NCBI GenBank assembly: GCA_963798485.1
Contig: CAWCTR010000008.1
Span: 64,001-128,000, forward strand
DNA: 64,000 nt
Direction: 5' to 3'
Source of the DNA: an uncultured delta proteobacterium
GTDB taxonomy: Bacteria; Desulfobacterota; Desulfomonilia; UBA1062
Part shown: positions 2,663 through 58,987 of the stretch, in pieces
Layout of the letters: each line of letters begins with the position of its first letter
How positions within the stretch are numbered: the stretch's first letter is position 1
Program-made: the position numbers and the translations under genes
The notes under the pieces: model-generated
The model's input: only the letters and a program-made list of their open reading frames with translations
The model's database searches: none
Told to the model about the DNA's origin: nothing

Positions 2663-2725
2663 GGGCGCATAAAGGGGGAGAGGGACAGCCCCTCATTATA
2701 TTAATGTTCGGCTATCGAGAGAACC

Positions 2726-5407
2726 TTAATACCGCTTGTTTCTGTCTTTAACGTGTGTCCCCGGATCCGCTTTCTCCTTGCTCATCAACTTAACACGGGG
2801 AAGCCCTTCATCAAGGTTAAGGATTCTCTCGGTTCCGGCCGTGTCGGCCATCTCAACGAAATCTTCCGCAACCTCTCTCTTAAATCCGAGCTCGGGCAGA
2901 TAAATGTCAAAAGTGGTTCCTTGTCCCGGAGCGCTCTTACAGCTGATTGCGCCTCCATGGCTTTTCACAATCCCATGAACAATCGACAACCCCAGACCCG
3001 TACCATGGCCTTTCCACTTGGTGGTAAAATAGGGGTCAAAGATTCGCGCCATAACCTTTGAGGTCATTCCATGACCGGTATCCCTAACCGTCATCCTGAG
3101 ATAAGGTCCGGGCGGTACATCCAGATTAAGGGCGGCATCACTGTCGATAAAAGCTCTCTGAAGGCTCACTTCCAATTCCCCTCCGGTCTCACCCATAGCA
3201 TGGGCTGCATTGGTACAAAGGTTCGTCATAACCAGGTGGATCTGAGCCGGATCTCCCAGGACCTGTCCTGAAGGTTCAAGCATCTCACGAATCTTGATGT
3301 TCGAGGGTAATGACGGCCGCAACATTTTGAGCGATTCCCGTATGACAGGATCGAGCACGAGCGGGACATATTCTTTTTCAGCATGCCGGCTGAAGGCAAG
3401 GATCTGATTGACAAGGTCTCTCGCCCGGATAGCCGCCTTACGCACTTCATTGAGGTCGCCGTGTACTACGTTTAAGTCTTTATCCCCCCTCGTCAGGCCC
3501 ATAATATCTTTCATCGACATCTTGGTGTAGCCGAGAATGGTTGTCAGAATGTTATTGAAATCATGGGCTATACCGCCTGAGAGTGTTCCGATAGACTCCA
3601 TTTTCTTTGTTTGAATCTCCAGCCTCTTCTTCTGTTCTTCTATCTCTTTAAGAGCGGTAATATCGGTCATTACCATGACCATACAGTCTTCTCCACTGTA
3701 GTGCACCGGCCTGGCAGATACGAGGGTATCTAAAATAATCCCACCTTTTGACCGGCACTGGCACTCCAGGCTATCAACCAATTCGTCGTTTTTTATGAGC
3801 TTAATATAATAATCAAAATCTTCGGAACTCACAGGCAGATTCAGGTCAAGAGGCGTTTTCCCGATGGTTTCTTCAAGGGAATATCCGGTTATCTTGCAGA
3901 ATGTATCATTTACATAGAGATAGCGTATATCTTTGATTTTTATAATACTCACGGCATCCGGCATGCTCTGAAGGGTGATACGGTATCTTTCCTCGCTTTC
4001 CTGCAAAGAATTTTCCATCTCGATACGCTTGGTGATATCTCTGACCACCGTGATCATCGCGACAACGCGGCCATCACGAATGACCGGAACACCGTTTGAC
4101 TCCCCAAATTTCACTTCCCCGTCTTTGGTGATAAACCGGTAAATGTTGGTATAGACTGTCTTCCCCGAGAGCACATGCAGGGCATTCTCAAAGGCATCAC
4201 CCACGTCATCGGGATGCACGAGCATCGTGAGATCTTGAAAGTGCTTCCCGATCAGTTCCTCGGGCTTGTACCCAAGTGCCCTCTCTACGTTCGGAGAGAC
4301 GCTCAGGACCTTGAACTGGCTATCGTATGAGAACATAACATCATCGGTGAGGGAGAAATAGCTGCGGTATTTTTCATCACTCTTCTGCAACGTTTTCTCT
4401 ATATGTTTACGCTCCTCAATTTCCTGCTTGAGCTTCTCATTTACCTTCGTGAGTTTCAGTGTACGATCTTTGACCAAGTCTTCCAGATGGTCACGATGGC
4501 TCTTAAGTTCTTCCTCAGCCCGCCTGCGCTCGGTGATATCACGTACGATTGCCCACATACCGGTGGGTTTCCCGATATCGTCCTTGAGGAGGAACATCCT
4601 CAACTCCACAGGGAAGACCGTACCATCTTCCTTGCGGTATTCCTTTTCATAGATATCCGAATACCCCCTTTGAAGAACCTGTTTTTCAACGATGGCGGCT
4701 TCAAGCGCATGCCATTTCTCAGGGGTAAGGTCGGAATAGGTCCGCGCGCTGATCTCTTCCGGCTTATAGCCGAGCATATTCCTGTACGTTTCATTATATT
4801 CCTTTACCTGACCGTCCATATCAGTACTGACAAAGGCATCCATCATACTGTCATATAATCGGCGATACTTGGCCTCCGAAGCCCTTAGCGCCTCCTCAGC
4901 CTGTTTGCGCTCGGAAATATCGCGGGTAATCCCCATAATGCCTTTGATCCAGCCTTTTTCATTGTAAAGAAGGTTCAGCGTAACCTCTGTCCAAACTTTC
5001 GAGCCATCCTTCCGGAACATCTCAAGCTCGATGGTCTTTGACCAGTCAGGACCATGCCGCTGTCCAGCCGCCTCAAGGAAACGTTCTTTTGCAAATATCT
5101 CCATTGCCTTTGTGTAGGAATCAGGCGTGAGTACTTCATTAAGCCTAAGTTTCATGGCCTCTTCAACAGTATATCCCCTGAGATGTTTGACTGATGGGCT
5201 CACATAGGTGTAGCCGAAGTTGAGGTCGAAGACCCAGATCAAATCATGGGCATTCTCGGCAAGGATTCGGTAGCGCTCTTCGCTCCCTTTGATAGCCTCT
5301 TCCATGCATTTGCCCTCATAAACCGAATTTTCCAGTTCAGCGATGCGCCGGCGTGCCTCTGATAACTCTTCAATGAACTGCTGGCTTGTCGTAATGTCAT
5401 CTTTCAT
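2726..5407 (-). CDS. multi-PAS sensor histidine kinase with vestigial receiver stub
   Basis: Four PAS/PAC repeats, H-box GIAHDFNNIL, N-box NLCTNA, DTGHG, FDPYFTTK, GTGLGL. Confidence 0.92.
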   Translation of the reverse strand: MKDDITTSQQFIEELSEARRRIAELENSVYEGKCMEEAIKGSEERYRILAENAHDLIWVFDLNFGYTYVSPSVKHLRGYTVEEAMKLRLNEVLTPDSYTKAMEIFAKERFLEAAGQRHGPDWSKTIELEMFRKDGSKVWTEVTLNLLYNEKGWIKGIMGITRDISERKQAEEALRASEAKYRRLYDSMMDAFVSTDMDGQVKEYNETYRNMLGYKPEEISARTYSDLTPEKWHALEAAIVEKQVLQRGYSDIYEKEYRKEDGTVFPVELRMFLLKDDIGKPTGMWAIVRDITERRRAEEELKSHRDHLEDLVKDRTLKLTKVNEKLKQEIEERKHIEKTLQKSDEKYRSYFSLTDDVMFSYDSQFKVLSVSPNVERALGYKPEELIGKHFQDLTMLVHPDDVGDAFENALHVLSGKTVYTNIYRFITKDGEVKFGESNGVPVIRDGRVVAMITVVRDITKRIEMENSLQESEERYRITLQSMPDAVSIIKIKDIRYLYVNDTFCKITGYSLEETIGKTPLDLNLPVSSEDFDYYIKLIKNDELVDSLECQCRSKGGIILDTLVSARPVHYSGEDCMVMVMTDITALKEIEEQKKRLEIQTKKMESIGTLSGGIAHDFNNILTTILGYTKMSMKDIMGLTRGDKDLNVVHGDLNEVRKAAIRARDLVNQILAFSRHAEKEYVPLVLDPVIRESLKMLRPSLPSNIKIREMLEPSGQVLGDPAQIHLVMTNLCTNAAHAMGETGGELEVSLQRAFIDSDAALNLDVPPGPYLRMTVRDTGHGMTSKVMARIFDPYFTTKWKGHGTGLGLSIVHGIVKSHGGAISCKSAPGQGTTFDIYLPELGFKREVAEDFVEMADTAGTERILNLDEGLPRVKLMSKEKADPGTHVKDRNKRY

Positions 5408-51486: not shown

Positions 51487-51640
51487 CGTCAAATCCCCTC
51501 AACAAGACCTCGACCACCTCGTTTCTTTCCACATTTTTATCCTATGTATGCGCACAGGCGTTTCAATGGATTTTGATCCTTGTGATAAGGGCTCTTCTCA
51601 CCTATTATGATAAGTAATTATTGAAATGTAAGGATTATGA

Positions 51641-52201
51641 ATGGAAGACACAATTTCTGCAATCTTTGAGGAAAGCAAAGGCCTCCATGAACGGCTTATG
51701 CCTTTGGCCCCGAAGATCGAGCAGGCTGCCCGGTTGATGATTGAATGTATCGAAGTGGGCGGCAAGATCATGTTTGCAGGAAATGGCGGGTCGGCAGCCG
51801 ATGCCCAGCATCTTGCCGCAGAGCTGGTGAATAGGTTCAAGAAAGAGCGCAGGCCGATGGCAGGCCTTGCGCTCACTACCGATACCTCGGTGATTACTGC
51901 AATCGGGAACGACTATTCCTTTGATGAGATATTCGCAAAACAGATCATGGCCGTCGGCAGGGCAGGGGACCTTTTTGTCAGTATATCCACAAGCGGCAAT
52001 TCAAGAGATATTATCAGGGCTATCGAGACTGCCCGTGACATGGGCATAGCCACCATAGCCCTTATAGGTGAAGGCGGGAAGATCAAGGACCTTGCAGGCT
52101 GCGCCATCGCTGTACCTTCCTGCAACACCCCGAGGGTCCAGGAGGTGCATATCCTCATCGGCCACATCCTGTGCGAACTCCTCGAAAATGCCTTGAGCTG
52201 A
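51641..52201 (+). CDS. gmhA: phosphoheptose isomerase
   Basis: GNGGSAADAQHLAAEL, NDYSF, ISTSGNS, TPRVQEVHILIGHILC. Confidence 0.96.
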   Translation: MEDTISAIFEESKGLHERLMPLAPKIEQAARLMIECIEVGGKIMFAGNGGSAADAQHLAAELVNRFKKERRPMAGLALTTDTSVITAIGNDYSFDEIFAKQIMAVGRAGDLFVSISTSGNSRDIIRAIETARDMGIATIALIGEGGKIKDLAGCAIAVPSCNTPRVQEVHILIGHILCELLENALS

Positions 52202-52202
52202 T

Positions 52203-52231
52203 TTGACAAATGCCAACAGAGGTACTATTAA
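52203..52231 (+). promoter_or_regulatory. sigma70 promoter of ssrA
   Basis: TTGACA (52203-52208), 17 bp, TATTAA (52226-52231). Confidence 0.65.
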
Positions 52232-52245
52232 CAAGTATAACCCAT

Positions 52246-52600
52246 GGGGGCGTAATGGGTTCGACGGGGGTAGTTGATACCCAAGGAGCATGCCGAGTTC
52301 TGCTGACTCGTAAAACAGGCAGAGACACGATAAGTGCCGACGATTATAACTACGCAATGGCTGCTTAACGAGTAGCCCGTCTAAGCATGACCCCGCCCAT
52401 CGGATCATGTTTGGGCGTCAAATTAAGATGGGCAAACCCTGCAGTCAGACCCCTGGGTTGCAGGGTATCAAAGAGGGGTTGGGGCCGGGAAGCCTGTCTG
52501 TGGGCGGAACGAGCCCGAGACATTAATACACTGACTAAGCATGTAGACGCCTTGTGTTGAAGGCCTTCGGACGGGGGTTCGATTCCCCCCGCCTCCACCA
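52246..52600 (+). ncRNA. ssrA: tmRNA
   Basis: 5' GGGGGCG...GGTTCGAC; 3' T-arm GGGGGTTCGATTCCCCC and CGCCTCCACCA; tag frame 52336-52368 ADDYNYAMAA*. Confidence 0.96.
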
Positions 52601-53033
52601 AAAAATATAATATAATCAATAGGTTGAATATTGTATATCATAAGTGACATTACTGTAAGCAATTAGTATATCGTCTGATAAACCGCATAGTTCCTGGGTT
52701 TCCTGGAACTTACATACCGTAAAGCGCACAAAGAGTAATATGATGTGTAAAAGAGGTGTGGACTATCTTAAACAGCAGGCTGGATGTAGGAGTACGGGGG
52801 TGCAGTTTTTACTATGTAGCCAGCAGTTTCATGGATCGATTGAAATATATTGAGTAGGAAAATCAGTCCGAAGAATTGATTACTCATCATCATGATTTAA
52901 GCGAGAACCTCCAATCTATTGAGTCCAAGCATATCAGGCTATCAGTTTAAATCTCTTCGCAAATTGCTAGCATTCCTAGCATTACAGGTACTATTATAAA
53001 CTAAGATTGAATGGATGTCCCAAGTAGCAGTTT

Positions 53034-53130
53034 TATTGCCTAACAATTGCTTTGCAAACAACAAATGTTAGGCAATATTTCTGTTGATTTATTGCCTAAC
53101 AATATCTATAATTAATCAGAATGTTAGGCA
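53034..53130 (+). promoter_or_regulatory. promoter with two tandem palindromic operators
   Basis: TGCCTAACA-N20-TGTTAGGCA twice, 56 bp apart; TTGATT (53084)-17-TATAAT (53107), with the -10 inside the second palindrome. Confidence 0.8.
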
Positions 53131-53140
53131 GAGGTCAGAT

Positions 53141-53455
53141 ATGAGTGTCATAAGGGGTATTTTAGAAGAAGAATGCGACCGGTTGGAAGAGCTTTCTGTT
53201 TTCTATAAGGAAAAGATTGCAGAAGCCCCTCGTGGATCGATATCAGTGAAGGGAAGGGGTGGAAAGAAGTATATCTATCTCGCACGTCGTGAAGACAAGA
53301 AGATCATTTTCGAGTATGTCGGGAAAGATGTTCCCGAAGTCCGAAATGCCCTCAATGAACGTATAAGGCAGAGGAAAGAATATCAGGCAAAGCTGCGCCA
53401 AGCGAGGGAAAATCTCAAGGAAGTAAAGAGGGCCCTTCGTGGAAAAAGAGCATGA
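53141..53455 (+). CDS. small basic protein, putative DNA-binding antitoxin (DUF6788-like)
   Basis: PRGSISVKGRGGKKYIYLARREDKKIIFEYVGK flanked by helices; overlaps the next gene. Confidence 0.6.
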   Translation: MSVIRGILEEECDRLEELSVFYKEKIAEAPRGSISVKGRGGKKYIYLARREDKKIIFEYVGKDVPEVRNALNERIRQRKEYQAKLRQARENLKEVKRALRGKRA

Positions 53456-54122
53456 TCTATTCCTCGTCATATTAGCCAAGCTCGATAAGGAAGAGGTTCT
53501 CCAGGACATCATTCTTATAGGCGGCTGGTGTCCTCTCATTTACAAGGAATATTTCGGTAACCCGGTGGAGATTTCCATGCAACGGACAGCCGATTTGGAT
53601 TTCCTGATTCCCAACCCTCCACGGATACATAAAGACGTCGATGTCTCTCTGATCTTGGAAGGTTTGGGCTTTGACAAGAAATTATCGTTGTTGGACGGTT
53701 ATGAGAAGTATGTCCATCCGGATCTGGAAGTTGAATTTCTCACACCTGAAAAGGGTAGAGGGCGGGATAAGCCCTATACAATTGATAAACTCCACATTAA
53801 TGCGCAAGGGCTGAGGTATCTGGATCTTATACAGTCTTACATAATGAAAACCGTATACAATGGAATATCAATCAATGTGCCGGAGCCGACGGCCTATGTT
53901 TTACACAAGTTCATCGTAAGCGGTAGGCGCAAGAAGTCTTTTAAGCGGGAGAAGGATATCGAAACCGCGCGACAACTTGGAGAATACCTTTTAGAGCAAG
54001 AGAAGCAGAGGAAAAGAATGCATGAGATTTATGTGGACATGGCTGATAAGTGGAAGAGAGATCTCATGAGAATCGTGAAAGGAGCTTCAGAAAAGATCTA
54101 CACATTTTTGAATTCTATTTAG
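53439..54122 (+). CDS. nucleotidyltransferase-fold protein (GSU2403-like)
   Basis: LIGGWC, RTADLDFLIP, VEFLTP, VPEPTAYVLHKF, KREKD. Confidence 0.78.
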   Translation: MEKEHDLFLVILAKLDKEEVLQDIILIGGWCPLIYKEYFGNPVEISMQRTADLDFLIPNPPRIHKDVDVSLILEGLGFDKKLSLLDGYEKYVHPDLEVEFLTPEKGRGRDKPYTIDKLHINAQGLRYLDLIQSYIMKTVYNGISINVPEPTAYVLHKFIVSGRRKKSFKREKDIETARQLGEYLLEQEKQRKRMHEIYVDMADKWKRDLMRIVKGASEKIYTFLNSI

Positions 54123-54455
54123 AAATAGTGTGCTGCAAGTGATGTCAATCCATCGTGCTGTTCCTATGGCAAAGTCACTCAGACGATGAATCTCCCATAA
54201 GTGCAATTCTCCAGCCTATGGACCGAACAGTATGCGAAAGATTTAACCGCGCACACGCAAGAAGATCAGTTGTAACGATGTGTTCATTCGTTCGCTTTCA
54301 CCATACATACGTGCTGCATGACCATACAAATATTAATACAACAGTCACTGTTAAGGTTGTCCTAGAACTATCCATATCAAGAACCTAATTTGTGCAAAAC
54401 CTGTGTAGCAAGATTATAATACCTTATAATCATTATCAATAAATTACTATGAGAA

Positions 54456-54474
54456 GGGTTCGATTCCCCCCGCC
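54456..54474 (+). repeat. att site: duplicated ssrA 3' end
   Basis: Identical to 52575-52593; followed by tandem 11-mers CTCGCCCGCAA/CTCACCCGTAA (54514-54535), possible arm sites. Confidence 0.85.
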
Positions 54475-54541
54475 ACTTTAGTGATTAATATTAGGTAGAT
54501 ACATTATTTTACTCTCGCCCGCAACTCACCCGTAATAGGTA

Positions 54542-55666
54542 TCACTTTTTTTCAAGGATTTCCCTCTTTTTCGCGACACTTGCCTTAGCGTATGCCTCGG
54601 TGCTCTCGATTCTTGCCCAATCACCAGCAATCTGAAGCTCCGCTCGCGTGATCCCTACTTCATTCATCAGTTGAGAGGCCCGGCTTGTTTTCGTGCCACG
54701 GTACACATCAATGTTCTCCCCTGCTTTCCCACAGGCCTCTTTCCAGATTCTTCGATAGACCTTCTCAGTGTATCTTTTCCCTGGTACCCGAGAATCTCTA
54801 CAGGTGAAGAGGAAAGGGCTGAATGGATTGCTGTTCATAGCCAAATTAAGGTAAGGTTTAAACTCAGAATGGCAGGGTATGATGTGGATCTCACCAGTCT
54901 TTGTCCTATCAATCAACTGGCCATTGCTTACGCCCCTTCTGACGATAAATATATCCTGGTCTGAATCATAATCTTCTTTAAGTAAGGCACAGGCTTCTCC
55001 AGGTCTCCTAAGATGGAGATACAACCACATGAAGAAAGGTTTATCCTCTTCGGGTATATACTTTATTACTTCATTATAACGTTCTGTGGGCAACCATACC
55101 GGTTGCTTCTGTCTGATGTCATAAAGGTTCCGTTCCGGGAAAGGAGGAACAGCTTGGATACGTTCAGACTTCCAGGCATATTTTAAGCAGCAACGCAGCG
55201 TATCGACTACGTTCTTTTTATTCTTACCCGAGCCTTTGACACAGTTAAGGAGCTGCACCAGGGTATCATATTTGATCTCATGGAGCATGATTTGATTCTG
55301 TTCGAAGAAGGGAACAAGGTGCTGCTCGACAGCTGTCCTATACTTCTTATATCCGCCAGGGGTCAACGTGGGATGCCGTGCATCAAGCCAGGATCTTAGG
55401 TAAGGAATAACATCGGTATAAATTTCACCAATGTATTTCTCGATCCTAAAGACACCTCGTTCGGTATCACCTTGCATGAGGGCCATAAGTTTATCGGCCT
55501 TCCTCTTTCCGATATCATGTTTTTCAATCGGGTGGGTCTGGTACATTACCTCGGTTTCGCCGGGGTAGCGGGATATCTTGTATTCCTTGTTGTGTGGAAC
55601 ATGCCACCAGTGAACCCGCCAGTAAGGCCGGTTTACGTCTGTCCTTAGTTTGACACACCCCTTCAT
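54542..55666 (-). CDS. tyrosine recombinase/integrase
   Basis: LRRPGEACAL, TKTG, C-terminal TEAYA; ends ~70 bp from the att copy; start behind GGAGG. Confidence 0.88.
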   Translation of the reverse strand: MKGCVKLRTDVNRPYWRVHWWHVPHNKEYKISRYPGETEVMYQTHPIEKHDIGKRKADKLMALMQGDTERGVFRIEKYIGEIYTDVIPYLRSWLDARHPTLTPGGYKKYRTAVEQHLVPFFEQNQIMLHEIKYDTLVQLLNCVKGSGKNKKNVVDTLRCCLKYAWKSERIQAVPPFPERNLYDIRQKQPVWLPTERYNEVIKYIPEEDKPFFMWLYLHLRRPGEACALLKEDYDSDQDIFIVRRGVSNGQLIDRTKTGEIHIIPCHSEFKPYLNLAMNSNPFSPFLFTCRDSRVPGKRYTEKVYRRIWKEACGKAGENIDVYRGTKTSRASQLMNEVGITRAELQIAGDWARIESTEAYAKASVAKKREILEKK

Positions 55667-55982
55667 ACATAGACCTCCCACATTGCAATTGGGAGATATT
55701 ATGGAATTGGGCGCTATTCCCGCCAAGTTGATAGTGGTATCCAAGTGTCCTTCCTCCATTGCAGAAAAAAATAAAAACCAACTTTTTCCTCCCTTGCCCC
55801 TTTCACAGATGAATGAAGGGGAAGGGAGGAACGACCGGAGAAAGAACAGCCTGGAAGGCTCACCTTATGTGGTCACAGATTGTGGCCACGGAGGACCCCC
55901 GAAGCGCAGCAAGAAGCATGACAACAGTTTTTTGTTGGCGTGCTGCTTTCTCAGCGAGCGGAGGGGGCTTTTAGATTATTTT

Positions 55983-56029
55983 GATCATTTGCAAAACGTT
56001 ACAATAAGTGTTACTTTCTTCAAACGATC
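55983..56029. promoter_or_regulatory. putative AbiEi operator
   Basis: Imperfect 21-bp IR (16/21) with a 5-bp spacer just upstream of abiEi. Confidence 0.5.
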
Positions 56030-56051
56030 CATATTCTATTCTGAGGCAGAT

Positions 56052-56831
56052 ATGTATACGGGATTCATAGATGAACTTGTTGCCAAGGGACGCTTTTGCT
56101 TCACGATAGACGATATCAAGAAGCTGACGAATGGGTCCCAGCAAACGATCAGGGTTGCGCTGTATCGGCAGCAGAAAAAGGGCGAACTCGTTATGCCACA
56201 TCGGGGGTTTTATGTCATTCTGCCTCCTGAACATCGATCACGGGGTTGCCTGCCCCCGGAGCAGTTCATCCCGGACCTGATGGAGTATCTGAGAGAAACC
56301 TATTATGTCGGGCTGCTCAGTGCTGCTGAATACTATGGAGCAGCCCACCAGCGGCCCCAGGTCTTTCAGGTTATCGTTGCAAAAAGCCGCAGGCCCCTCA
56401 GATGCGGTAAAGTCACTGTACAGTTTATCTTCAGGAAGAATGCAGCCAAGATTCCGACCCAGTCGAGGAATACCCCTGCCGGGATCATAAAGATAGCCAC
56501 CCCTGAAGCCACGGCGCTGGATCTCATCGGATATGTCAAACATTGTGCAGGTCTGGACAATGTTGCCACGACACTGACAGAACTCTCTGAAAAGATCGAG
56601 GTGAAGCGTCTCATCGAGATTGCAGAACTATCACCCATTGCATGGGTGCAGAGGCTTGGGTATCTGTTCGATCGGATAGGTGAGCAGGAGAAGGCCTCTG
56701 TGCTTACAGACTACCTGATTAAAAAACACCCTTCACCCACTGCATTGATACCCACCATCACTATGAAGGGATCAAAGAAGGACGACCGGTGGCAAATTTT
56801 TGTCAATGCCGACGTGGAGTCTGAAGTTTGA
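56052..56831 (+). CDS. abiEi: type IV TA antitoxin AbiEi
   Basis: N-terminal wHTH, YYVGLLSAAEYYGAAHQRPQ, ATPEATALDL, QRLGYL. Confidence 0.88.
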   Translation: MYTGFIDELVAKGRFCFTIDDIKKLTNGSQQTIRVALYRQQKKGELVMPHRGFYVILPPEHRSRGCLPPEQFIPDLMEYLRETYYVGLLSAAEYYGAAHQRPQVFQVIVAKSRRPLRCGKVTVQFIFRKNAAKIPTQSRNTPAGIIKIATPEATALDLIGYVKHCAGLDNVATTLTELSEKIEVKRLIEIAELSPIAWVQRLGYLFDRIGEQEKASVLTDYLIKKHPSPTALIPTITMKGSKKDDRWQIFVNADVESEV

Positions 56832-57634
56832 TACCCCTGGCATATATCAACGAGTGGCAGCAGTTCGCCCCATGGCCGATGAGATCGCAGGTCGAGCAGG
56901 ACCTGATCATCTGCAGGGCACTTGTTGAAATATTCAATGATCCATTCCTGTCCAATGAACTCGCATTTCGTGGTGGAACAGCACTCTTCAAATTATATCT
57001 GCCACCGGCCAGGTATTCAGAAGACATCGACTTTGTACGGGTGAAGGCTGGTCCTATTGGTCCTGTCATGGATGCACTCCGGGAAAGACTCAACCCATGG
57101 CTGGGAACTCCAAAGCGAAAGCAATCAGAAGGAAGGATAACATTAATTTACAGATTTGAATCTGAGGAAGGCTTGCCGTTGAGGTTGAAGGTTGAGATCA
57201 ATTCCCGGGAGCAGTTCTCGGTTCTGGGGTTTGAAAGAAAGGATTTTACCATCAAATCGAGGTGGTATTCCGGAGGCACTTCTATCCTGACCTATCAGCT
57301 TGATGAACTACTGGGAACAAAATTACGAGCACTCTACCAGCGGAAAAAAGGGCGAGACTTGTTTGATATCTGGAAGGCATGTACGGACATGGATGCCAAT
57401 CCGGAACGGATAGTAAGTTGCTTCCTGAATTATATGGAACATGAAGGCCATACAATATCACGTGCTGAGTTTGAGAAGAACCTGTATGAAAAGTTGAACG
57501 ACCCTCGTTTCCTAGATGACATAGACCCCTTGTTGATGATTGACAGTGACTGGGATCTTCATAAAGCGATGGAGTATGTACTTGATAAAGTTGTAACATT
57601 AATCCCTGGAGATCCTTGGAAAGGTTTGTCGTAG
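56828..57634 (+). CDS. abiEii: type IV TA toxin AbiEii nucleotidyltransferase
   Basis: QVEQDL, FRGGTAL, RYSEDIDF, KLRALYQRKKGRDLFD. Confidence 0.92.
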   Translation: MIPLAYINEWQQFAPWPMRSQVEQDLIICRALVEIFNDPFLSNELAFRGGTALFKLYLPPARYSEDIDFVRVKAGPIGPVMDALRERLNPWLGTPKRKQSEGRITLIYRFESEEGLPLRLKVEINSREQFSVLGFERKDFTIKSRWYSGGTSILTYQLDELLGTKLRALYQRKKGRDLFDIWKACTDMDANPERIVSCFLNYMEHEGHTISRAEFEKNLYEKLNDPRFLDDIDPLLMIDSDWDLHKAMEYVLDKVVTLIPGDPWKGLS

Positions 57635-58231
57635 TCCTGCATTATAATGTGAAACAACAAAGTAAAATCTCTTGTTTGATCCTTCTTTTTTCTACTGATA
57701 TTTCCCAAGTGAACCTGATTTTTTCGGATGCATTCCTACCGCTTAAAAGAATATAAGTACAAATATTTTACCCCTTTTTTATTCATGTTCTGTCCTATCG
57801 ATTCTTCCGTGCTGATGTAATGCAACCCTGGATCAAGATAAATAGGTTTTATCAGGACATATATTGAGTACAATAATATCTGAGTTGCCTCATCAAACAC
57901 ATTAATGAATAACCTCAACAGGCAAGCCAACCATGCCCTAAACAAATTATATCTTCTCATAATAGTATCATCTGATAAATTACTGAAACATAATGGTATA
58001 AAATTACATTCCCGTTGTACACGTCAATTTATCTCGAGCAGGATTTATATTCATAAAATAATTATTATGCCTGATGCACCTCCCCAAGACATATTACAAC
58101 TTGATACGCCTGAAACAACAGCTGATCAATCTCTTTTTATCATTAATTATTAACACAGTACTCATCAATTGTCCTTATATTAATTGATAATGGCTATTGG
58201 TTGAGGGGTAAGATATGTTTACCCACAAAAA

Positions 58232-58987
58232 TCAAATAAGCCCCCAAAACATTTTGGCGGCAATTGCGTAGAGCACGATGCCAATTACTTTCTTCACCTG
58301 ACCCGCCTCAAGCTTATGTTGCATGAGCCATGATCCAAGCAGGGCACCGGCCACAGACCCAATGGCTGAAAATGCAAGCAGCGTCATATTGATCTTTTCT
58401 AGAGCAGCGTGCCCAAAAAATCCACTCAGGGAAGAAAATACCACTATGAACGCAGTAGTGGCGGAGGCACGTTTGGGGTCAAAACCAAGCCAGACTAGGG
58501 CGGGAACAATAAAGTTGCCTCCCCCCACTCCCAGGAGCCCCCCAAGATACCCTGCGCCGATACCCAGACCGATGCCCGTCTTTATCTCTCTATCCCGATG
58601 CCCAGCATGATCGATCCGGACCTGTGGTTTGTAGAAAAGCATCATGGACCCGGCAAAAATTAGAAAAAGAGAAAAAAGTATGATCAGCAAGCTCTTGGGA
58701 AACAAGTGTGCCGAATAGGCACCGAGTGGTGAAAACACAATCGCCAGAAGGATGATTGGTATAGCAGTTTTGAATACCACTAGCCTGTACCTTATGTAGT
58801 TGAACGAGGCAAAACTCATACTGAGGGCATTCAGGAGCAGGGCAACAGCCATTGCCTCCGTCAAGGGGAAGCCGAGCCAGTAGAAGGTGGGGATGATGAT
58901 GAATGCTGCCCCGACACCCGCAATTGTGAGCACTGTGGTGAAGAGAAAAACAAGTACCGATGCGATAATAATCGTGGAAGTCAGCAT
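58232..58987 (-). CDS. TauE/SafE sulfite exporter family protein
   Basis: Multi-TM protein with GLLGVGGGNFIVP motif. Confidence 0.88.
   Translation of the reverse strand: MLTSTIIIASVLVFLFTTVLTIAGVGAAFIIIPTFYWLGFPLTEAMAVALLLNALSMSFASFNYIRYRLVVFKTAIPIILLAIVFSPLGAYSAHLFPKSLLIILFSLFLIFAGSMMLFYKPQVRIDHAGHRDREIKTGIGLGIGAGYLGGLLGVGGGNFIVPALVWLGFDPKRASATTAFIVVFSSLSGFFGHAALEKINMTLLAFSAIGSVAGALLGSWLMQHKLEAGQVKKVIGIVLYAIAAKMFWGLI

Follow-up and report, generated by a model that had tools for sequence, protein, structure and literature searches.

Within the 64,000-nucleotide (nt) window that we analyzed, a stretch of contig CAWCTR010000008.1 from an uncultured delta proteobacterium, we studied a two-gene cassette at positions 53034-54122. 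The first gene (53141-53455, + strand, ATG start) encodes a basic protein of 104 amino acids (aa; isoelectric point, pI, 9.99) labeled as a member of the Pfam family DUF6788 (PF20586), and the second (53439-54122, + strand, GTG start preceded by AGAGGG) encodes a 227-aa nucleotidyltransferase of the family NTP_transf_8 (PF12281, also named "GSU2403 family"). The genes overlap by 17 nt and are preceded by two palindromes. On balance, positions 53035-54122 probably represent a self-contained, horizontally mobile, autoregulated toxin-antitoxin (TA)-type cassette, possibly a defense cassette, with the small protein as the proposed repressor and antitoxin and the enzyme as the proposed toxin. The original prediction for this DNA had also read the pair as a TA module; comparison with related loci points to a conserved, mobile pair that would regulate itself, and the toxin role is supported indirectly by gene decay, motifs, and layout.

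In the mechanism that we propose, the DUF6788 protein would bind each palindrome as a dimer, its three-stranded beta-sheet reading a 10-bp half-site, with the two half-sites of one palindrome 30 bp apart. This binding would repress the operon's own promoter, since the proximal palindrome abuts the -35 element, encloses the -10 element, and covers the likely transcription start; these steps are suggested by the comparison of related loci. By analogy with MenA1/MenT1 and AbiEi/AbiEii, the small protein would also keep the co-translated enzyme inactive, which it could do by binding it directly and possibly by provoking auto-phosphorylation of the conserved Thr50, at two positions N-terminal to the catalytic Asp52. 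Upon loss or displacement of the small protein (for example through cassette loss, stress, or phage infection), the enzyme would be freed and, again by analogy, might nucleotidylate an essential RNA, most likely tRNA 3' ends, leading to growth arrest.

Two palindromes over the promoter and their candidate reader

The distal palindrome (53036-53075, no strand assigned) consists of the 10-nt half-sites TTGCCTAACA and TGTTAGGCAA separated by a 20-nt spacer and is kept in relatives. This unit, TTGCCTAACA-N20-TGTTAGGCAA, is repeated 56 nt further on as the proximal palindrome (53092-53131), and a 16-nt direct repeat occurs at 53032 and 53088. The four half-sites (53036-45, 53066-75, 53092-101, and 53122-31) follow the order > < > <, with the fourth differing at its outer base. 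The 9-mer that they share, TGCCTAACA, lies on the + strand at 53037-53045 and 53093-53101 and as its reverse complement at 53066-53074 and 53122-53130, and these four copies within the two palindromes are the only exact ones in the window. When up to one mismatch was allowed, TGCCTAACA matched 13 times compared with 10.5 expected, and the near-matches elsewhere in the window are due to chance.

A promoter-like site (53084-53112, + strand) agrees with the consensus at 10 of 12 positions, with TTGATT as the -35 element (53084-89), a 17-nt spacer, and TATAAT as the -10 element (53107-12). It interlocks with the proximal palindrome, the -35 element standing immediately before the third half-site and the -10 element lying within the 20-nt spacer. 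A Shine-Dalgarno-like GAGG, read from the sequence, follows at 53131-53134 (+ strand), 6 nt 5' of the ATG of the small gene. The original prediction had described two overlapping genes preceded by two identically spaced palindromes 56 bp apart, the second around TATAAT, and the exact coordinates agree with this description. The borders that it gave also coincide with the DNA kept in relatives: similarity to Smithella-type loci is confined to 53035-54118, from the first half-site to the stop codon, and the flanks are unrelated.

Related loci were collected by scanning one genome per species with a profile of 13 closer enzyme sequences, which yielded 70 loci biased toward enzymes at least ~35% identical to that of the window; an alignment of 48 diverse enzymes contained no usable conserved stretch. 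A homolog of the small protein was found directly upstream and on the same strand in 69 of the 70 (hidden Markov model, HMM, E 1e-12 to 1e-59), while the remaining locus begins inside the enzyme gene and has no upstream DNA. The loci span more than a dozen phylum-level groups and include Smithella-like Desulfobacterota, Actinomycetota, Atribacterota, Elusimicrobia, Spirochaetes, Leptospiraceae, Calditrichia, Cloacimonadota, Planctomycetia, Omnitrophota, Bacteroidetes, Clostridia, and one Woesearchaeota bin. Overlap of the two open reading frames (ORFs) was assessed in 44 loci with an enzyme match from residue 1 onward, a set that leaves out two loci described below (L009 and L031); 42 of these loci show it, and in 27 it measures 17 nt. 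Compared with nine Smithella-type loci, the ratio of nonsynonymous to synonymous substitution (dN/dS) was 0.06-0.10 for the small gene and 0.03-0.10 for the enzyme gene, with dS often saturated, and by these estimates both genes are under purifying selection.

The operator is conserved along with the genes, a check that had been proposed with the original prediction. We scored perfect inverted repeats with an arm of at least 8 nt and a span of 34-46 nt within 160 nt upstream of the small gene, dropping three loci with shorter upstream DNA. Of 66 loci, 62 had at least one such repeat and 49 had two or more, compared with 113 and 2, respectively, of 2028 control windows from the same loci and 94 and 5 of 1320 shuffled sequences. 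Half-sites in relatives lie at about -107, -76, -50, and -19 from the start codon, again in the order > < > <. The distance from a forward to a reverse half-site is 30-31 nt, start to start, in 77 of 81 cases (a spacer of 20-21 nt), whereas neighboring palindromes stand 13-69 nt apart (mode 26, in 15 of 40). Since spacing is fixed within palindromes and variable between them, the palindrome with its 20-nt spacer appears to be the unit, which fits binding by a dimer. The promoter elements favor the proximal copy: of 37 loci, 30 have a -10-like hexamer within the proximal spacer and 17 within the distal one, and a -35-like hexamer occurs just 5' of the forward half-site in 24 versus 5 of these loci. 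Taken together, these comparisons strongly support the palindromes as a conserved operator laid over the core promoter.

The half-site words differ by clade (TTGCCTAACA, TTACCAGACA, TTGCCCAACA, TTGCCCTACA, TTAACCTACA, TTACCATACA, and TTAACTAACA) and have TT..C..ACA in common, a constancy across clades that argues for base-specific reading. Two of the variable bases track residues of the small protein. Arg39 is accompanied by G at base 3 and any other residue at this position, mostly Ile, by A (50 of 50 rows), and base 6 is C with Ser or Thr at position 57 and not C with Phe57 (49 of 50 rows). Residue 39 falls between strands 1 and 2 of the predicted sheet and residue 57 in strand 3, and each of the two co-varying traits changed about five times on the enzyme tree. 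This co-variation makes the small protein the likely operator binder. We consider it very probable that the small protein reads the operator sites and that its binding to the proximal palindrome would block RNA polymerase. The autoregulation through the palindromes that had been predicted for this protein thus gains support from an operator conserved over the promoter and from the co-varying residues, insofar as sequence comparison can speak to it.

The original prediction had left the small protein without a family. It instead carries a precomputed PF20586.4 label, as do 99 of the 103 proteins listed, and its nearest clusters in the ESM Atlas (Pfam 38.1) are named "DUF6788 domain-containing protein" (score 0.96). 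A local Pfam-A hmmscan did not return PF20586 for this protein even at E <=10, with the library copy as the probable cause, and a "no Pfam hit" from that scan is unreliable for DUF6788. In the structural model (predicted local distance difference test, pLDDT, 91.3), a three-stranded antiparallel sheet (residues 33-62) lies between an N-terminal helix of 26 residues and a C-terminal helix of 36. Foldseek returned no match for it at E <=1e-3 in the PDB or among viral models, and a PDB sequence search gave no significant match. Below these thresholds, it showed a weak likeness to the arm-type domains with which integrases bind DNA (Pfam Arm-DNA-bind_5, E 0.03; Foldseek matches to 3rmp_C, probability 0.75, 3jtz, and 3ju0, all at E 0.26 or worse). 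These domains of tyrosine integrases (the P4-like and HPI integrases) read DNA and resemble the small protein in having a three-stranded antiparallel sheet followed by a helix, and they are the only DNA-binding folds among its weak matches. They differ in that all scores are below significance, in that the small protein adds its 26-residue N-terminal and 36-residue C-terminal helices, and in that it is not part of a recombinase.

This likeness to arm-type domains suits an alternative in which the palindromes and the small protein serve mobility, the protein being a DNA-bending factor of the arm-site or excisionase kind and the repeats being recombination or structural sites (cruciforms or RNA hairpins). 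A hairpin would likewise explain why the two arms change in a compensatory manner, but the constant TT..C..ACA and the co-variation of half-site bases with protein residues indicate base reading rather than pairing, and the predicted promoter would transcribe the last half-site only. Conserved DNA does begin precisely with the first half-site, but the sites flank the cassette on a single side, have no other copy in the window, and are locked to the promoter hexamers and the start codon. The cassette does occupy islets bounded by attachment (att) sites and devoid of an integrase, both in the window and at L009 (see below), yet most loci lie outside recognizable islets. We consider a mobility role highly unlikely and favor the palindromes as the operator of a TA-type operon.

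The nucleotidyltransferase as candidate toxin

The enzyme matched NTP_transf_8 over residues 11-190 (86.1 bits, E 4.3e-24, cut-off 26.3), and this match above the gathering score upholds the earlier description of the second gene as a GSU2403-like nucleotidyltransferase. All but one of the listed homologs carry a precomputed PF12281 label, and in public bins, relatives go by the name "GSU2403 family nucleotidyltransferase fold protein". A library of 50%-identity clusters contained 1130 relatives at E <=1e-3, 491 at 1e-10, and 99 at 1e-30. Across the 48 diverse enzymes, G28, Y35, D52, D54, K157, R164, and K169 are invariant, and T50, E99, and D173 are conserved in at least 90%. Polymerase-beta motifs I (hG[GS]) and II ([DE]h[DE]h) are both present, the former as G28 followed by G or S and the latter around the invariant D52 and D54, which in the window enzyme lie in R-T-A-D-L-D at residues 49-54. 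A second set, K157-x6-R164-x4-K169-x3-D173, is invariant or nearly so, and its order resembles the K-x6-R...RD of the AbiEii protein encoded in the same window, although the spacing differs. E99 and this set were compared with motif III and with a motif IV specific to DUF1814, both as defined in PMC7450476. The conserved catalytic set implies that the enzyme would be active.

The structural model of the enzyme (pLDDT 95.3) has MenT1 (8an5_B, E 8.6e-4), MenT3/TglT (E 3e-3), and JHP933 among its PDB neighbors, all of them distant, with template modeling (TM) scores of 0.4-0.6. The neighbors also include ANT(2'')-Ia (5kqj, 5cfu, 4wqk), LnuA (4fo1), TM1012, and an antigenic fungal protein. A PDB sequence search with the enzyme alone gave no match, and its profile matched 5uvd only (E 0.036).

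The two genes differ in how often they are broken. The enzyme gene was interrupted in 16 of the 65 loci with DNA present, by a stop in the G28 codon, frameshifts, internal deletions, or truncations, several of which were checked by eye, while the small gene was interrupted in 0 of 69. Given the gene lengths (684 versus 315 nt), a split this one-sided would arise by chance with a probability of ~0.002, and because the loci were found through enzyme motifs, it is not an ascertainment effect on the small gene. This one-sided decay is the strongest indirect argument for the enzyme as toxin. The catalytic residues, the MenT-like motif order, and a layout and mobility resembling those of TA systems point the same way, so that the enzyme is a candidate toxin supported only indirectly. 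The traits of TA type that we observed are co-directional, overlapping genes that are kept together, operator repeats over the promoter, a patchy and mobile distribution, and an enzyme gene that decays first.

The direction of decay also bears on a reversal of the two roles. In type VII HEPN-MNT pairs, the minimal nucleotidyltransferase is the antitoxin, and by this precedent the enzyme might covalently modify and silence a small protein that is itself harmful, for example by binding DNA widely; the very basic character of the small protein (pI 9.99) fits such roles. However, it is the enzyme gene that decays and the small gene that stays intact, the opposite of what would be expected if the small protein were the toxin, and the half-site occurs nowhere else in the 64-kb window. 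We regard reversed roles as extremely unlikely and retain the enzyme as the candidate toxin.

Single-chain relatives and known systems

Some relatives carry both domains in one chain. P0331 (332 aa) is a full fusion, in which the small-protein HMM matches residues 1-97 at E 1e-19 and the enzyme domain follows, and P0227 is a partial fusion. Distant enzyme relatives, all below 60% identity, were found in 353 records of a plasmid collection, mostly from Rhizobiales and Rhodobacterales. The two plasmid proteins that we examined are "GSU2403 family" proteins of 364 and 387 aa with PF12281 at approximately residues 105-320. The small-protein signature can be aligned to their N-terminal extension, at matching positions (30-90) but weakly (E ~1e-3, 13 sequences), and hhalign of the small-protein profile against the two N-termini was not significant. 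With the exception of position 54 in P0331, catalytic residues are retained in the fused forms.

Operator-like sequences accompany some of the fused genes as well. TTGCCTACAA and TTGTAGGCAA, from the same family of half-site words, lie upstream of a fused Methylobacterium gene (L072), whereas a fused gene on plasmid At of Agrobacterium fabrum C58 (L071, 292847-293941) has a different, perfect 14-nt palindrome just before its start codon (L071 1893-1921). The C58 gene also adjoins a PIN-domain gene. A search for longer proteins with the small-protein profile gave two matches among 7999 scored candidates, a sample that covers the range of DUF6788 fusions poorly. In P0374 (312 aa), a DUF6788-like N-terminal domain is fused to Fic/Doc (Pfam Fic, 29 bits), with Gln at the expected catalytic His position of the Doc-like motif, and in P0373 (238 aa), such a domain precedes a 100-aa C-terminal part of unknown nature. 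These proteins hint at toxin-type partners of several kinds for DUF6788, and the fusions speak for a functional, and probably also a physical, connection between the two proteins of the window.

Given these fused forms, the family may be better described as a single-unit sensor-effector than by the classical model of a labile antitoxin. In such an arrangement, resembling a fused TA-like defense system, a single molecule or stable complex would remain silent until triggered by a phage or another signal, and the split form in the window would be a variant of the fused GSU2403 type. The full fusion P0331 and the retention of catalytic residues in fused forms fit this arrangement, as does the position of the window cassette beside an AbiE system. 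The extended plasmid proteins would fit as well, but the evidence that their N-terminal extensions are homologous to DUF6788 is weak. The related half-sites upstream of the fused gene in L072 are similarly offset by the different palindrome in L071, and a defense role finds no echo in PADLOC, the phage collection, or PHROGs, none of which returned a match. We consider this arrangement unlikely for the window and continue to prefer a TA-type pair of separate proteins.

Several results nevertheless weigh against the TA-type reading. ANT(2'')-Ia, LnuA, TM1012, and the fungal antigen score equal to or better than MenT1 and MenT3 as structural neighbors of the enzyme, and since antibiotic-modifying enzymes score as well as these toxins, the fold does not single out a toxin. 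The enzyme matched neither PF08843 nor any of ~40 PADLOC AbiEii models at E <=1, and hhalign of the 48-sequence enzyme profile against the window AbiEii alone or against a five-sequence AbiEii profile gave probabilities below 1%. Some of the enzyme interruptions may be assembly or sequencing errors of the metagenome bins. The full fusion P0331 has Tyr in place of D54, the second catalytic Asp, and fused forms are the rule on alphaproteobacterial plasmids, which is a poor fit to the classical labile-antitoxin model. For the co-variation between half-site bases and protein residues, independent contrasts on well-supported branches were concordant in 3 of 3 and 2 of 2 cases, numbers too small to reach significance (sign test p 0.25 and 0.5). 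With regard to phage defense in particular, the enzyme was absent from the phage collection, and neither protein was found in PHROGs.

By the Pfam, PADLOC, and hhalign profile tests, the enzyme is not a member of the AbiEii/MenT (DUF1814) family, and the link to that family made in the original prediction accordingly fell away at the level of family membership.

The structural neighbors (ANT(2'')-Ia, LnuA, and TM1012 are among the top ones, at TM up to 0.6 on target length) and the missing profile link to AbiEii/MenT would be compatible with a harmless accessory enzyme that modifies a small molecule, such as an antibiotic, or a non-essential target. The DUF6788 protein would then be the transcription factor of the operon and nothing more, and autoregulation alone does not imply toxicity. 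However, with a helix, a beta-sheet, and a helix in 104 aa, this protein has no recognizable ligand-sensing domain. A useful enzyme with a dispensable regulator should also decay in the reverse manner to what we observed, where 16 of 65 enzyme genes and no regulator gene were broken. The order of the T-x-D-x-D and K...R...K...D motifs is MenT/AbiEii-like in spite of the profile results, and the minimal cassette keeps company with TA and restriction genes and sits at tRNA/tmRNA islets. An accessory enzyme is, on this evidence, unlikely.

Returning to the TA-type reading, its fullest form would make DUF6788 and NTP_transf_8 an unrecognized and very widespread family of TA or abortive-infection systems. 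The family would combine a new beta-sheet repressor that bridges half-sites 30 bp apart and follows a code of Arg39-G3, Ile39-A3, and Ser/Thr57-C6 with a MenT-like enzyme silenced via Thr50, would exist in split form and in single-chain form on hundreds of plasmids, and would spread as an integrase-less, att-flanked islet that borrows its neighbor's integrase. That all of these elements hold together is possible but doubtful.

The pair matched no system catalogued in PADLOC. Neither protein matched any family in PADLOC-DB 2.0.0 at E <=1, a database in which the neighboring AbiE pair scores 1e-94 and 1e-109, and NCBIfam has no family for either. In the full-text literature, supplements and subscription journals aside, we found no published function for PF12281/NTP_transf_8/GSU2403 or for PF20586/DUF6788; the one full-text mention of GSU2403 is as a "hypothetical protein" in an RNA-seq expression table. 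The claim that the pair is undescribed therefore holds for PADLOC, NCBIfam, and the searchable literature.

Among characterized systems, MenAT1 offers a close parallel. Like the window cassette, it pairs a nucleotidyltransferase with a short upstream protein unrelated to AbiEi, and MenT1 is among the nearest solved folds of the enzyme. Excerpts of PMC11375011 give T39, D41, K137, and D152 as conserved in MenT1, and the window enzyme echoes them with a conserved Thr at two positions N-terminal to a catalytic Asp and with a Lys...Asp further on. According to excerpts of the same paper, which also name S78 of MenT3, and of a preprint (bioRxiv 10.64898/2026.01.19.700257), this Thr or Ser of MenT1 and MenT3 is auto-phosphorylated upon antitoxin binding. 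The systems differ in that MenT1 is a DUF1814 protein, while the window enzyme belongs to PF12281 without a profile link. They also differ in their partners: MenA1 has 68 aa and is described, in PMC10435456 and PMC11375011, as having no DNA-binding domain in a system without transcriptional autoregulation, whereas the partner in the window is a 104-aa protein with a DNA-binding core predicted to be a beta-sheet and with an operator that is conserved.

AbiE and MenAT3 share with the cassette a nucleotidyltransferase effector, an upstream DNA-binding partner that autoregulates, overlapping genes, and residence on mobile islands, features that for the cassette are read from its sequence. The window AbiEii itself has G-G ... 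S-E-D-I-D-F ... K-V-E ... K-x6-R ... R-D, and the order G-G, [ST]-x-D-x-D-F, h-E-h, K-x6-R ... [KR]-D is found in both nucleotidyltransferases of the window. In contrast, AbiEi is a protein of ~260 aa with a winged helix and a kinase-like domain, while the window partner is a 104-aa DUF6788 protein by label with no AbiEi match in Pfam or PADLOC, as had been foreseen. The enzyme furthermore matches no AbiEii model, and the operator is made of two palindromes with 20-nt spacers. By analogy, the module would work like MenAT1 or AbiE, with a nucleotidyltransferase and an upstream partner that neutralizes it, yet it stands outside both families.

Two further comparisons concern the enzyme. It is a member of the GSU2403 family (PF12281), but the annotated plasmid members that we examined are single proteins of 364-387 aa, whereas the window has the split form. 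With ANT(2'')-Ia and LnuA, which are among its best structural matches, it shares a minimal polymerase-beta-type core at 13-16% identity, but these enzymes have no such partner gene or operator, and only PF12281 has the four helices at the C-terminus and the K157/R164/K169/D173 motif.

Should the enzyme prove to be a toxin, a function would be gained for DUF6788 and NTP_transf_8, and the theme of nucleotidyltransferase toxins known from AbiE and MenAT would extend beyond DUF1814 to a family present in many uncultured anaerobes and on rhizobial plasmids. The clean operator, with its fixed 20-nt spacer, two units, and variants that track two residues, could serve as a model for DNA recognition by a beta-sheet, and its variants offer orthogonal repressor-operator pairs. 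Annotation pipelines currently label the genes "hypothetical protein" and "nucleotidyltransferase fold protein", and their strict pairing would allow them to be annotated jointly.

The ssrA islet, its neighbors, and mobility

The cassette lies in an islet next to the transfer-messenger RNA (tmRNA) gene ssrA (52246-52600, + strand; ARAGORN; Rfam RF00023, 202 bits), which is the integration target. An exact 19-nt repeat of the ssrA 3' end delimits 1.88 kb of AT-rich DNA, with one copy within the 3' end at the left border (52575-52593) and the other at the right border (54456-54474), just before the integrase gene of the next element. Apart from the pair, the islet has no ORF longer than 77 aa other than a 98-aa ORF antisense to the pair (53243-53539, - strand), and a Pfam scan of four of these additional islet ORFs, including the 98-aa antisense ORF and a 77-aa ORF, gave no match. 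The gene pair remains, as first described, the only recognizable cargo of the islet.

The adjoining island carries a tyrosine recombinase/integrase gene (54542-55759, - strand; PF00589, E 1.9e-11) and the canonical AbiE pair that had been placed ~2 kb from the cassette, which Pfam and PADLOC matches confirmed. The AbiEi antitoxin gene (56052-56831, + strand; Pfam AbiEi_1 E 3e-54, PADLOC AbiEi E 4e-94) is followed by the gene for the AbiEii (DUF1814) nucleotidyltransferase toxin (56828-57634, + strand; Pfam AbiEii E 3e-39, PADLOC AbiEii E 3e-109). The mechanically called AbiEi ORF starts at 55650, 134 codons before the AbiEi-matching part, and overlaps the 5' end of the integrase gene on the opposite strand; the true start is probably the ATG at 56052. 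The region from 52575 to 58200 thus has a tandem layout at ssrA, comprising the integrase-less islet (52594-54474), the integrase, AbiEi/AbiEii, and an AT-rich stretch of ~600 nt. A search that allowed 3 mismatches in 26 nt gave no third copy of the ssrA-end repeat with which the integrase/AbiE island would be closed. In an Rfam scan of 51500-58500, the tmRNA alone was above threshold. A sub-threshold match to permuted tmRNA (RF04321, 33.8 bits versus a gathering score of 47) at 52569-52812, which extends from the 3' end of ssrA to within the islet, probably reflects no more than the acceptor-arm sequence.

Among related loci, neighboring genes are not conserved (115 of 116 ORFs scanned, one duplicate having been dropped). 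They include housekeeping genes and scattered genes of TA, restriction, and mobile type, namely RelE, HigB, Phd, Panacea-HTH, PIN-PhoH, HsdR, HsdM/S, AAA_14-DUF4143, and a phage portal. Among 60 scanned loci, nine have a tRNA or tmRNA gene next to the pair, seven of them within 500 nt, and two of the nine genes are tmRNA genes (in one Clostridia bin and one PVC-group bin). At L009, the 3' end of a tRNA-Glu gene is directly repeated over 48 nt (94% identity), and the repeats surround a 1.66-kb islet (2687-4397) whose sole cargo is the pair, and neither this islet nor that at the window ssrA contains a recombinase. In this locus, which comes from a long-read bin, the small ORF continues into the enzyme frame, probably through indel errors. 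Taken together, the comparisons strongly support the view that the two genes and their operator form a conserved, self-contained, mobile unit.

This arrangement resembles that of cis-mobilizable elements (CIMEs), which are att-flanked, lack an integrase, and lie in tandem with an integrative element. CIMEs are known from streptococcal integrative and conjugative elements (ICEberg 2.0, PMC6323972). The likeness consists in the 1.88-kb islet, bounded by ssrA repeats and without a recombinase, being directly followed by an integrase island, and it extends to the tRNA-Glu islet at L009. The setting differs from that of the streptococcal elements, a third att copy was not found here, and mobilization of the islet by the integrase of the neighboring island is a conjecture. 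The exact borders of the cassette and its occurrence as sole cargo of att-bounded, integrase-less islets bear on how small TA cassettes move between genomes.

Two loci depart from the simple arrangement. In L031 (3-2729), the whole pair occurs twice in tandem (3-985 and 1738-2729) with an HNH endonuclease gene between the copies on the opposite strand, and a gene for a minimal MNT-type nucleotidyltransferase lies just 3' of the second copy (3093-3392, - strand). In L059 (3501-4330), the enzyme ORF past approximately residue 143 runs in frame into protein-kinase-like sequence, which could reflect a rearrangement or a chimeric assembly.

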